Notes: generated by a model not told the origin, from the sequence alone. A stretch of DNA of 64,000 nt from Paludibacteraceae bacterium (GCA_045532735.1 JAZSGL010000091.1:29275-93274), one strand, 5' to 3'; counted from the first letter of the stretch, positions 15,696 to 59,333 are shown. A program made the numbers and translations.

Positions 15696-15744
15696 GTCTA
15701 TCCATAGGTGATATATCTGTTGGCACCATGCGTTGTTTCCTCCT

Positions 15745-15846
15745 CGTCGCGCCAGGATGTTCTTATCTCCCTTCGGTCGAACGATCGCTTCGCGTACGAT
15801 TGGCGCGAAAGTTGTTTAAGTTGTCGTTATTATCAATCATTCTAGT
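15745..15846 (+). repeat. Module R1, long-loop copy; 102-bp direct repeat of 21694-21795
   Basis: Manual alignment gives 102 bp with 1 mismatch. The hairpin stem is tcgcgcca (15747-15754) / tggcgcga (15801-15808), followed by aagttgtttaagttgtcgttattatcaat. Confidence 0.9.
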
Positions 15847-17518: not shown

Positions 17519-17546
17519 AGTGTCAACTCGTATATAGTTCCCGTAA
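17519..17546 (+). repeat. Module R2 (gtgtcaactcgtatatagttccc); other copies at about 17879, 32361 and 32579
   Basis: Four copies of a roughly 24-bp word AGTGTC..(C/G)TCGTATATAGTTCC with few mismatches, all intergenic. Confidence 0.7.
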
Positions 17547-17607
17547 TTTTTAATAATATTTTACAATTTTGTCTAATTTTTGGATAGCACTATCCCTTTC
17601 CCCGCCG

Positions 17608-17690: not shown

Positions 17691-17727
17691 TTTCACTCAC
17701 GGCGTACTTGCCGTGTCATTCCTTTAG

Positions 17728-17870
17728 CGCGAGATGTATTGTTTCTCGCGCTGATGTTGTTGATTTAAGTTGTTTGAGTTGTTGTAAATTATTTTTCCTT
17801 GTCGCGCCAGGAAGTTGATTGGCGCGAAAGTTGTTTAAGTTGTCGTTATTATAAATAATTCTAGTTGTTT
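17728..17870 (+). repeat. Two tandem R1-like units (short-loop form)
   Basis: The first hairpin is gcgcgaga/tctcgcgc (17728-17752) followed by GTTGTT-rich sequence. The second is tcgcgcca (17802-17809)/tggcgcga (17820-17827) followed by aagttgtttaagttgtcgttattataaat. Confidence 0.75.
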
Positions 17871-19478: not shown

Positions 19479-19594
19479 CTTATAAATCGGATATAAATGC
19501 TTATAAATCGGATATGAGATTTGGCGGTGTAGGGTAGTGTAGGATGGTTTAGAGTGGTGTAGTATGGTGTAGTATGGTGTAGAGTGGTTTTGAG
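19479..19594 (+). repeat. Iteron-like arrays: 2 x 21-bp (cttataaatcggatat...) then 7 x 10-bp (TGGTGTAGNN)
   Basis: The 21-bp units start at 19479 and 19500. The 10-bp units are cggtgtaggg, tagtgtagga, tggtttagag, tggtgtagta, tggtgtagta, tggtgtagag and tggttttgag (19525-19594). Confidence 0.85.
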
Positions 19595-19785
19595 TTTGCC
19601 CATCAATGCAAGTTTTTGCATTCTTTTGGGCAAAAACAAAAGTTAATCTATGAATTGACGATAATTGACAACCTAATTGACAATAATTGTCTTTAAAAAT
19701 TAATTCTCGATTTTTATTTATTTTTGTAGCTCGGAACGAGCGTATTTTTGTTTCTCTAAAATAATTTTCTACAATTTTGGTTAAT

Positions 19786-19894
19786 TTTTGGATCTCTTCC
19801 ATCCCTTATTCCCTTAAAAAATCGCATGTTTTTCAGAAAAACCAACAAAATTTATAAATAAATTTGTTTGTTCCGAAAAATTGTATTACCTTTG
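19786..19894 (+). promoter_or_regulatory. Promoter/operator module P, copy A (drives abiEi)
   Basis: 109 bp, about nine-tenths identical to 21945-22053. It contains the palindromes tttttcagaaaaa and aacaaaatttat..ataaatttgtt (19844-19868) and ends in the -7 box TAccTTTG (19887-19894). Confidence 0.8.
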
Positions 19895-21551: not shown

Positions 21552-21693
21552 TCTTATGGAATAGTTTAAGTGGTTTAACATTCTATCTCCCACTGATCTC
21601 ACTAATCTTCACGGATTACCATGATTAAAATTAGTGTCGATCCGTGCTATCCGTGGGAGTTATATTCCCGCGTTTTGTTAATATTAATCCCCC

Positions 21694-21795
21694 CGTCGCG
21701 CCAGGATGTTCTTATCTCCCTTCGGTCGAACGATCGCTTCGCGTACGATTGGCGCGAAAGTTGTTTAAGTTGTCGTTATTATCAATAATTCTAGT
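21694..21795 (+). repeat. Module R1, long-loop copy; direct repeat of 15745-15846
   Basis: 102 bp with 1 mismatch. The stem is 21696-21703 / 21750-21757. Confidence 0.9.
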
Positions 21796-21815
21796 TGTTT
21801 TTTAGTTGTAGTGTC

Positions 21816-21944
21816 TAAGATTCAGGCGCGAGCGACTGCGCAGTGCCGGTGGTAATTTATTTCGGAGAACACAGAAAAGTGCGGATCATAGCGTAAAAAA
21901 GATTTATTAGATTTCTGCGAGCCTGCGAGCAAGGAGATACATAA
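21816..21944 (+). repeat. Module R4 (about 130 nt); second copy at 32443-32578
   Basis: Shared blocks are taagattcag, ggtggtaatttatt.cggag, aaaagatt.at.agatttctgc and aggagata. Between these blocks the two copies carry hairpins of different sequence at the same position. Confidence 0.6.
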
Positions 21945-32180: not shown

Positions 32181-32261
32181 TCTAAACGTGGGTGACTTGT
32201 TCCCAATAATTTTGTTTAATTTTCTACAATTTTGTATAATTTTTGGATGCTACTTTCTCCT

Positions 32262-32345
32262 CTTGAGCGCCCAAGGAGTATTGATTTGGGCGCAAGTTGT
32301 CAATATTGTCGTCAAATAATACTCCTCGAGCGCGCAACAGTTGTT
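32262..32345 (+). repeat. Module R1, divergent copy with a compensated stem
   Basis: The stem is gcgcccaa (32267-32274) / ttgggcgc (32286-32293). The loop ggagtattgat resembles the loop ggaagttgat at 17810-17819. The stem is followed by aagttgtc... Confidence 0.7.
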
Positions 32346-32360
32346 GTTTTTTTAGTTGTA

Positions 32361-32610
32361 GTGTCTAGTCGTATATAGTTCCCTTAAAATTAGTGTCGAT
32401 CCGTGCCATCCGTGGGAGTTATATCTTCTGCGTTTAATTAGTTAAGATTCAGCGGACTCGCAAAGCGAGTGCTAGCGGTGGTAATTTATTGCGGAGCACG
32501 TAGAAAAAAGCGTAGGTTTAAGCGCAGATAGAAAAGATTAATAAGATTTCTGCCCCAACGGGGCTAGGAGATAATTAAGTGTCAACTCGTATATAGTTCC
32601 ATAAATTTAT
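32361..32610 (+). repeat. Mosaic block R2-R3-R4-R2
   Basis: R3 (aaaattagtgtcgatccgtgc.atccgtgggagttatat) also occurs at 21627-21670. R4 also occurs at 21816-21944. Confidence 0.65.
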
Positions 32611-59259: not shown

Positions 59260-59333
59260 TCGGGATGACAAGATTTGAACTTGCGACCTCCGGTCCCCCA
59301 GACCGTTGCGCTACCGGGCTGCGCCACATCCCG
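59260..59333 (-). tRNA. tRNA-Pro (anticodon GGG)
   Basis: A 74-nt cloverleaf was folded by hand. The acceptor stem is CGGGATG/CATCCCG plus discriminator A. The D stem is GCGC/GCGC and the anticodon loop is CTGGGGG. The T arm is GCAAG-TTCAAAT-CTTGT. CCA is not encoded. Confidence 0.9.

Follow-up and report, generated by a model that had tools for sequence, protein, structure and literature searches.

Short palindromic repeats are dispersed through bacterial genomes in several described forms. REP, REPIN and BIME elements are GTAG-tagged repetitive extragenic palindromes (REPs) that are mobilised by RAYT transposases (Bertels & Rainey, 2011, PMC3116915). CGTC-tagged repeats, which include RPE-4 and RPE-6 of Rickettsia and dRS3 of Neisseria, have 8-9-bp stems with A-T at the first two positions, 4-5-nt loops, a CGTC or TGTC tag right next to the stem, and CCA as the tail (Di Nocera et al., 2013, PMC3733652). 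They have no dedicated transposase, form mostly head-to-head dimers, which are often heterodimers, lie in some cases in coding regions, and have been reported in Bacteroidetes (PMC3733652). Rickettsia palindromic elements (RPEs), about 100-150 bp long and mostly intragenic, are in-frame inserts in unrelated housekeeping genes (Ogata et al., 2000, reviewed in PMC10969869). Here we describe a hairpin element found in a 64,000-nt stretch of DNA from a Paludibacteraceae bacterium (contig C11, positions 29275-93274; the whole stretch is called the window). The hairpin at window positions 17802-17827 is probably a member of a short interspersed DNA repeat family that is restricted to a lineage of uncultured ruminant-gut Paludibacteraceae.

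The element was compared with each of these systems. Like REP, REPIN and BIME, it forms short GC-rich hairpins that are dispersed and mainly intergenic, and it occurs in inverted head-to-head doublets. Compensatory change in the hairpin, lineage-specific bursts of copies and a presumed action as single-stranded DNA are further likenesses. However, the REP/REPIN palindrome is abutted by a GTAG tag, whereas the element has no GTAG, and its flanks in all copies are ccTTGA (5') and AAGTTGTC (3'). REP and REPIN have a cognate RAYT, and none was found with PF01797 in the source genome. The element has a conserved loop of 10-11 nt and an array of TTGTC words, both of which REPs lack, and its copy number is in the tens, not the hundreds, with a quarter of the copies in genes. 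With the CGTC type it shares the stem length, heterodimeric doublets, in-gene copies, TGTC or CGTC in the tail words and the failure to find a dedicated transposase, but the element has a longer loop and a GC-rich stem, its TGTC is repeated and lies 4 nt off the stem, and there is no CCA tail. As in RPEs, copies survive in frame in unrelated housekeeping genes and add peptide segments at permissive sites; the sequence and the host phylum are unrelated, however, and most copies are intergenic. attC sites resemble the element in that folded structure counts over sequence, the loop is variable, series of the same orientation stand between gene blocks, and there is replication-strand asymmetry. 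In contrast to attC, the consensus has neither RYYYAAC...GTTRRRY cores nor extrahelical bases, no integrase or attI lies nearby, and the copies are mostly solitary and do not form cassette boundaries. The element is a variant of the REP/REPIN/RPE type that fails the defining features of each family, and the family appears to be undescribed.

Anatomy of the family and pairing of the stem

The source genome is a metagenome-assembled genome (MAG) of 1.95 Mb in 108 contigs, 83% complete. Its contigs carry C labels, and the genomes of relatives carry G labels. BLAST, motif, structural and covariance-model searches revealed a dispersed family of about 47 copies. The structural scan, which required a perfect stem of at least 7 bp with at least 60% GC and then two [G/A]TTGT words, gave 47 sites in the genome and 1 in the reversed-genome control. 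The covariance model R1 likewise gave 47 matches. In the consensus unit, about 60-110 nt overall, ccTTGA precedes an 8-bp stem ([G/C/T]CG[C/G/A]NNNA) that encloses the loop GGnnnTTGAT, and the complementary 3' arm is followed by two or three direct TTGTC(GT) or GTTGTT words, which form the tail. The stem is GC-rich; positions 1 and 4-7 are variable yet complementary, and a single A-T pair closes the loop. The type A tail is AAgTTGTCnnnnATTGTCGT; a third TTGTCGT word often follows at a distance of about 20 nt. The type B tail is AATGTTGTTGGATTAAGTTGTTTAAGTTGTTG. At least 13 stem variants are present. The commonest is GCGCGGCA, and the others include CCGCTCGA, GCGCCCAA, TCGCGCCA, CCGCGGCA, GCGCTCGA, GCGCCCCA, GCGCCCGA, GCGGGGCA and GCGACCAA.

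The preliminary description of the window proposed that the hairpin is maintained by compensatory substitutions between copies. According to the alignment of the stems TCGCGCCA and GCGCCCAA as 8-mers, the two differ at positions 1, 5 and 7, and each difference is compensated as had been claimed (T-A to G-C, G-C to C-G and C-G to A-T). Compensatory pairing was upheld with more copies. Statistics were calculated for an alignment of 34 copies (A3) with an 8-bp helix, that is, 272 cells, against 500 shuffles. Paired cells amount to 99.3%, compared with 72.2 +/- 2.0% in the shuffles. Double-sided changes are found in 61 cells, against 22.5 +/- 2.9 in the shuffles, and none of the 500 shuffles reached this number. 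Five of the eight stem pairs covary and no pair varies on one side only; among all the cells a single U-G is the only one-sided (wobble) change. The covariation score is 0.584, compared with 0.113 in the shuffles, and control helices slid along the alignment show 22-45% pairing.

As the first scan had required pairing, a pairing-free rescan was anchored on the loop and tail only. A perfect 8-bp stem is present in 32 of the 35 true copies obtained. The three imperfect stems have one mismatch each (T.G, G.A and C.A), and G.T is not enriched. In an independent metagenome scan with the pattern GTTGATTNNNGCGCAAGTTGTC, in which the 5' arm was left free, 28 contigs were found, and the 5' arm is perfectly complementary in 27 of 29 copies, with seven different variable triplets. 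The evidence that pairing, rather than sequence, is conserved in the stem is statistically strong. A palindromic operator for a dimeric DNA-binding protein is ruled out, as the half-site sequence varies while the complementarity stays.

The preliminary description went on to argue from covariation that the structure itself is selected, as RNA or as DNA. The structure is indeed conserved, and the evidence favours DNA, but covariation alone need not imply selection: templated correction of quasi-palindromes could give the same pattern without it. Nor does covariation alone imply RNA, because compensatory change has already been documented in mobile REPIN hairpins (PMC3116915).

Genomic setting, distribution and turnover

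About 72% of the 47 copies lie between genes; crude open reading frame (ORF) calls make about 89% of the genome coding. The copies build up in the spacers and in islands prone to recombination, of which the window region at 15.7-32.4 kb is one. Orientation is unbiased with respect to the two closest genes (13 copies have both on their own strand and 18 have both on the opposite one) and to the coding-strand balance within 10 kb (p=0.61). About eight copies are located within 150 nt downstream of a same-strand gene. Six head-to-head doublets were found (C2, C7, C12, C31, C40 and C86), with the tails outward and two different stems in each.

About 13 of the 47 covariance-model matches are intragenic. 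The copies within ORFs lie in both orientations, and the ORF stays open. Doublets lie in frame in EPSP synthase and in three DUF5675 paralogues; the other in-frame hosts are MutY, an MtaB/MiaB-like radical SAM enzyme, a GT2 glycosyltransferase, a DUF3987-like protein and an ORF on C106. By Pfam, each host is a single gene. As is characteristic of RPEs, the insertions are in frame and the host ORF is kept; Pfam domains span the inserts, and orthologues without the insert exist. The NUDIX_4 domain of MutY spans the insert, and in the MtaB/MiaB-like protein the Radical_SAM domain occupies 224 residues for a profile of 166 positions. The MtaB proteins of G011, G004 and G003 show an uninterrupted junction (...LRALDxLxx/DYRVRISS..., the slash marking the junction), where the source genome has about 55 extra residues, the reversed element among them. 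The core of the element has 3.3 stop-free frames per copy, compared with 2.5 in shuffles and 2.8 in random genomic 58-mers. The enrichment is modest; therefore, the intragenic copies are best read as survivors of selection, not as design. A conserved peptide module is ruled out, as the stem variants alter residues, frames and orientations differ, and stop-free frames are only slightly enriched.

Among about 37 other species of the same genus, the covariance model R1 found 10-87 copies in each of 12 species and none in the remainder. In 24 other genera of the order there was no match except one marginal match (E=9.9e-4). Exact-pattern matches in GTDB representatives fell in genomes titled 'MAG: Paludibacteraceae bacterium', sampled from the guts of yak and sheep, apart from two: a 2.7-kb contig binned with Alloprevotella and an unclassified MAG of the Bacteroidales. 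The commonest variant of the element had no match among the IMG/VR viral contigs, and the metagenome contigs carrying the element are short and chromosome-like. Thus, a phage or plasmid origin is not supported.

For the comparison of turnover, 15 filled loci and their flanks were joined into one query and searched against eight relatives, after which junction alignments were made. The copies in MtaB, on C86 and at C11:119049 are present in the source genome only. The copy in the MutY loop is common to the source genome and G007 and is absent from G012, G033 and G011; the loop contains other short repeats in G012 and G033, and almost nothing in G011. The doublet on C7 is present in the source genome and G047 and empty in six relatives, being gained or lost as a unit. 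The copy at C81:72136 is shared with G007 and G013, and the copies on C102 with G007 and G047. At the orthologous locus on C53, the stem is GCGCGGCA in the source genome and G013 and GCGCCCCA/TGGGGCGC in G047, which is either a double compensatory flip in place or a replacement by another copy. These comparisons show that closely related species differ by the gain, loss or replacement of units.

Nature of the element and rival explanations

The structure is most probably conserved as DNA and not as RNA, because the copies are neutral with respect to the gene strand, doublets combine differing stems, units turn over between species, pairing is strictly Watson-Crick, orientation correlates with GC skew, and one window copy (32320-32360) has an interior deletion. 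The skew was calculated per contig in 5-20-kb windows with the element and 150 nt on each side excluded. Of the two strands, the one reading from hairpin to tail tends to have more C. In the source genome the per-contig mean is -0.056, with 15-16 of 20 contigs negative (Wilcoxon p=0.0007-0.004). The two best-assembled relatives show the same sign more weakly (13 of 20 clusters negative in G036, p=0.058; 12 of 17 in G033, p=0.21), and the pooled result is 40 of 57 clusters negative. The bias in orientation is genuine, though only partial. Folding of the hairpin is equally strong on either strand (z -3.3 to -6.6).

We presume that the stem would be kept perfectly Watson-Crick since the element acts as a single-stranded DNA hairpin or a cruciform. 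A structure-recognising enzyme might spread it in a replication-linked manner, and/or template-switch correction might copy one arm from the other. The loop and the tail words would then be the sequence-specific recognition parts, and the stem the purely structural part. The recombination that built the island in the window probably made use of junction modules bearing the element. A more far-reaching proposal is a RAYT-independent, structure-specified mobile DNA system of gut Bacteroidota, in which shape and loop or word recognition would be combined with replication-strand-biased spread by a novel enzyme or template-switch process, copies would serve as landing pads for 30-50-nt modules, and the loops of essential proteins would be remodelled in frame together with other micro-repeats. 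Such a counterpart of the RPEs in a free-living gut lineage, with a new mechanism, is possible, and we hold it only tentatively.

Candidates for a mobiliser were searched for. PF01797 (Y1/RAYT) had no match in the source genome (an 83% complete MAG) or in the sampled element-bearing genomes, the search for HUH Rep proteins being limited to this profile. Within the genus, all PF01797 matches are in element-free species; thus, RAYT/IS200 is ruled out as the mobiliser. No REPtron-like neighbour gene was detected: 141 neighbouring ORFs compared all against all gave no recurrent family except one triplicated DUF5675 island. DUF3987 matches the element only partially as a phyletic partner. No parent element turned up among the neighbour genes, none of which recurs, or in the viral and metagenome scans, which contain no element-rich replicon; insertion sequences are often missing from MAGs. 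With respect to miniature inverted-repeat transposable elements, single units have no terminal inverted repeats, and only the doublets have inverted tails.

Several observations weigh against a mobile DNA repeat. Neither a target-site duplication nor a clean junction was observed at five filled/empty comparisons; a TTAG duplication is possible at the MtaB site and unsupported at the other loci. Filled and empty alleles differ by the swap of a whole spacer or loop patch, often for another micro-repeat family, so that the apparent mobility could instead be recombinational patch exchange. No mobilising enzyme was found with PF01797, the neighbour-gene searches or the DUF3987 profile. G012 is a close relative (MutY 90% and PGK 97% identical) with zero copies, whereas more distant species have 20-87, which simple vertical inheritance does not easily explain; the element may have been lost altogether or have spread horizontally, or the assembly may be at fault. 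The skew bias is partial (about 70%) and weakly replicated, and the six window copies are on the opposite side. Copy counts and the assignment to replichores can only be approximate for a MAG that is 83% complete and in 108 contigs. Functional RNAs, too, classically show a conserved loop and a covarying stem.

According to this last point, the element might be a functional structured RNA, that is, a cis-regulatory leader, a 3' element or a small RNA, with the loop bound by a protein or an RNA and the stem under selection at the RNA level. The conserved single-stranded tail is also typical of RNA families, the hairpin is thermodynamically strong, and some copies are located just downstream of promoter-like modules, such as the module D5 before 32257. 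We consider this unlikely. Rfam 15 at gathering thresholds matched only a tRNA in the window and not the element, and at E<=1 only spurious miRNA matches appeared, on a neighbouring AT-rich palindrome and none on the element. Orientation is unbiased with respect to the neighbouring genes, copies lie in ORFs in both orientations, and wobble pairs are almost absent from the stem. Gain and loss between sister species occur at otherwise conserved loci, head-to-head doublets would be senseless for a strand-specific RNA, and the skew that the orientation follows is a property of DNA. Intrinsic transcription terminators or insulators duplicated around the genome are scarcely credible. A permissive terminator scan flags 17802-17827 only, because the tail AAGTTGTTTA is T-rich, and the copies just downstream of same-strand genes would suit this function. 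However, the stem is followed by AAG without a U-run, and by TCAAGG on the other strand; copies in the position and orientation of a terminator are a minority, and those within ORFs would terminate essential genes (MutY, MtaB and EPSP synthase).

Recombination offers another explanation, in which the hairpin is an attC-like site whose folded strand is read by a site-specific recombinase, and the blocks between same-orientation sites are cassettes. Conservation of structure rather than sequence agrees with this, as does the partial replication-strand bias. The six window copies are co-oriented at block junctions, a pattern that recurs on C81 and C50; near-identical 105-nt copies stand around a 5.9-kb block; and in G007, which has no AbiE-giant gene-ATPase block, DUF3987 and PGK are joined through one element. 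Such a site is nevertheless improbable: the genes of the window island include no recombinase, the flanks of the element do not contain the attC core motifs, and the stem has only 8 bp and lacks conserved bases outside the helix. The majority of copies stand alone in ordinary spacers or housekeeping genes and form no arrays, the doublets are head-to-head, and the blocks between copies are large and multi-gene with their own promoters. Origins of rolling-circle and CRESS-type Rep replication comprise a hairpin stem, a loop and adjacent direct repeats, and the GC-rich covarying stem, conserved loop and adjacent direct repeats of the element resemble them; this is a resemblance only. Copies are also concentrated beside DUF3987 genes in the window and its G007 orthologue, and on the DUF3987/DUF5675 islands of C31, C40 and C86. 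The element could accordingly be an origin or iteron-like binding site for the DUF3987/VirE-like replication proteins of small islands, with the chromosomal copies as decayed or dispersed derivatives. We regard this as very improbable, as most copies are far from any DUF3987-type gene, a close DUF3987 orthologue is missing in 3 of the 12 element-bearing genomes and present in the element-free G012, and neither the viral nor the metagenome scans contain a small replicon rich in the element.

If the element is a DNA repeat, as we favour, pipelines that treat covariation as proof of an RNA motif should be used with caution, since strong covariation in this hairpin is most likely a DNA-level phenomenon. 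The general phenomenon is already known; the family and its in-frame colonisation of housekeeping genes appear undescribed. The repeat family and several companion micro-repeats are documented in uncultured ruminant-gut Paludibacteraceae, and the insertions into MutY, MtaB and EPSP synthase extend an RPE-like phenomenon beyond obligate intracellular bacteria. With RAYT absent and orientation partly biased to one replication strand, the spread of transposase-less palindromic repeats (the CGTC class) becomes testable in about 70 related genomes with an all-or-none distribution. The repeats mark island junctions in the window and are a likely cause of broken contigs and overlong predicted proteins in annotated MAGs.

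The window island and companion micro-repeats

Six covariance-model matches are present in the window, all within one island (Table 1). The four hairpins of the preliminary description (15747-15808, 17802-17827, 21696-21757 and 32267-32293) were recovered with the sequences reported there. AAGTTGT-type words follow every copy on the 3' side, and the related hairpin with its GTTGTT words at 17728-17790 is present as described. The 46-nt insertion in the loops of both long-loop copies, which have the TCGCGCCA stem, also exists; it is, however, a separate nested 36-nt module and not a variant loop.

Table 1. Hairpin copies of the element in the window
Copy	Position	Strand	Arms	Arm sequences	Other parts	Covariance model	DNA fold
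Long-loop copy 1	15737..15846	+	15747-15754 / 15801-15808	TCGCGCCA / TGGCGCGA	loop GGATGTT + 36-nt module 15762-15797 (CTTATCTCCCTTCGGTCGAACGATCGCTTCGCGTAC) + GAT; tail 15809-15831	38.1 bits	
Type B copy	17717..17790	+	17728-17736 / 17746-17754	AGCGCGAGA / TCTCGCGCT	loop TGTATTGTT; long tail with three GTTGTT words; adjoins the short-loop copy upstream	22.7 bits, E=7.5e-4	z=-5.7
Short-loop copy	17792..17864	+	17802-17809 / 17820-17827	TCGCGCCA / TGGCGCGA	5' flank TTTTTCCTTG; loop GGAAGTTGAT (ggaagttgat); tail AAGTTGTTTAAGTTGTCGTTATT, running on to ...ATTCTAG	74.5 bits, E=1.3e-18	-10.5 kcal/mol, z=-4.1
Long-loop copy 2	21686..21795	+	21696-21703 / 21750-21757		nested module 21711-21746; tail 21758-21780	37.6 bits	
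Divergent copy	32257..32316	+	32267-32274 / 32286-32293	GCGCCCAA / TTGGGCGC	loop GGAGTATTGAT (ggagtattgat); tail AAGTTGTCAATATTGTCGTCAAA	69.8 bits, E=2.8e-17	z=-4.0
Decayed type B copy	32320..32360	+			5' flank, GAGCGCGCAAC and GTTGTTG words kept; hairpin interior gone	14.2 bits, E=0.2 (weak match)	

The short-loop copy belongs to the repeat family D2. It has an orthologue with an identical stem in G007, where the type B copy also has an orthologue. Further type B-like copies are located on C2, C25, C29, C37, C46, C87 and C104 and at C11:119049. In the source genome the TCGCGCCA stem is found only in the three window copies, and the two members of repeat D1 (15742-15846 and 21691-21795) are 98% identical over 105 nt; therefore, these copies are local duplicates. 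The GCGCCCAA stem of the divergent copy recurs on C31 and C86 and in metagenome contigs. At the position orthologous to the decayed copy, G007 has an intact hairpin, GAGCGCGCAA-tgtgttgtt-TTGCGCGC-AACAGTTGTTGG. The loss of the interior would fit a deletion between direct GCGCGCAA repeats created by the palindrome.

The six copies share one orientation and lie at the gene-block junctions of a mosaic island between a TonB-like gene and PGK. The order of the blocks is TonB, two ORFs, DUF3987 with AbiE, a giant gene with an ATPase, and PGK. The DUF3987 primase-helicase-like gene adjoins the pair of window copies in both the source genome and G007, and DUF3987 is also present on the copy-rich contigs C31, C40 and C86. 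G007 has no 138-aa gene, abiEi/abiEii, giant gene or ATPase, and its DUF3987 gene is joined to PGK via one element. Because the AbiE-giant gene-ATPase block is missing there and this junction contains one element, the comparison suggests that recombination at or near the repeats may have helped to assemble the window island. The order in G007 is a 376-aa gene, a 133-aa gene, type B and type A elements, DUF3987, 706 nt and PGK. Duplicate copies of the modules D12, D13 and TAGTTGTAGTGTCTA stand at each border of the extra block (window 21625-21883 and 32350-32512).

Three paralogous small islands are located at C31:1-3500, C40:1-9100 and C86:1-4900. They contain the C-terminus of a DUF3987/VirE-like helicase, proteins of about 100 aa and a DUF5675 gene with an in-frame hairpin doublet. 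C40 additionally codes for a DnaQ-like exonuclease-BRCT protein and for a DUF3987-like protein of 775 aa that has a copy within it. The three islands may be integrated mobile elements.

The 36-nt module of the long loop (CTTATCTC..TCGAACGATCGCTTCGCGTAC) recurs in copies with four different stems. In G047 it is located within the loop of a copy whose orthologue is short-looped in the source genome. G047, like the C40 and C102 copies of the source genome, additionally has it in reverse orientation, inserted after the 3' arm and ahead of the tail. Thus present or absent at orthologous copies, the 30-36-nt module behaves as an independent nested insert. Sites of the 30-36-nt form CTTATCTC..TCGAACGAT.. 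are the two in the window, C40:~6600, C102, C12:3247, C37:4921 and C106:32208, and G047. A second module (GCGGGGTCCCCGAAAAAGC..GGGGTGC) occupies the loops of the copies on C9 and C53, which are short in G013 and G047, and also occurs alone as a 48-nt in-frame indel between the source genome and G007. As GCGGGGTCCCC..GGGGTGC, it is about 40-48 nt long.

Other micro-repeat families accompany the element. Tandem GAGGCGA(T) heptamers or octamers form a second family (C50:36628-38157 in MtaB, C106 and C87 in MutY; G012 and G013). In frame they give EEARG/RREARG peptides in several unrelated proteins, and in different species they take up the permissive loops that the hairpin element also occupies. 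A third family, CCTGTAGCGAAGCGTCC / GAGGACGCTTCGCTACAGGACGCC (peptide SLEDASLQDA), is located at about residues 114-160 of MtaB (C50) and in MutY of G033. The spacers of G007 and G033 orthologous to C86 are further hot spots of repeats of this type, and GACACCCGACACC-type repeats are inserted at the hot spots of the third family, in frame or in spacers. The MutY insert at C87:~1060-1110 contains TGGTGTAG / GAGTAGAA word arrays beside the hairpin element, which resemble the window array at 19525-19594 upstream of the DUF3987 gene.

The sole Rfam gathering-level match in the window is a tRNA gene at 59260-59333 on the minus strand. The AT-rich module D5 (TTTAATTTTCTAnnATTTTG...), which resembles a Bacteroidota -33/-7 promoter, recurs beside hairpin elements at window positions 32207-32257, 17544-17594 and 19752-19802 and on C12, C46 and C104.

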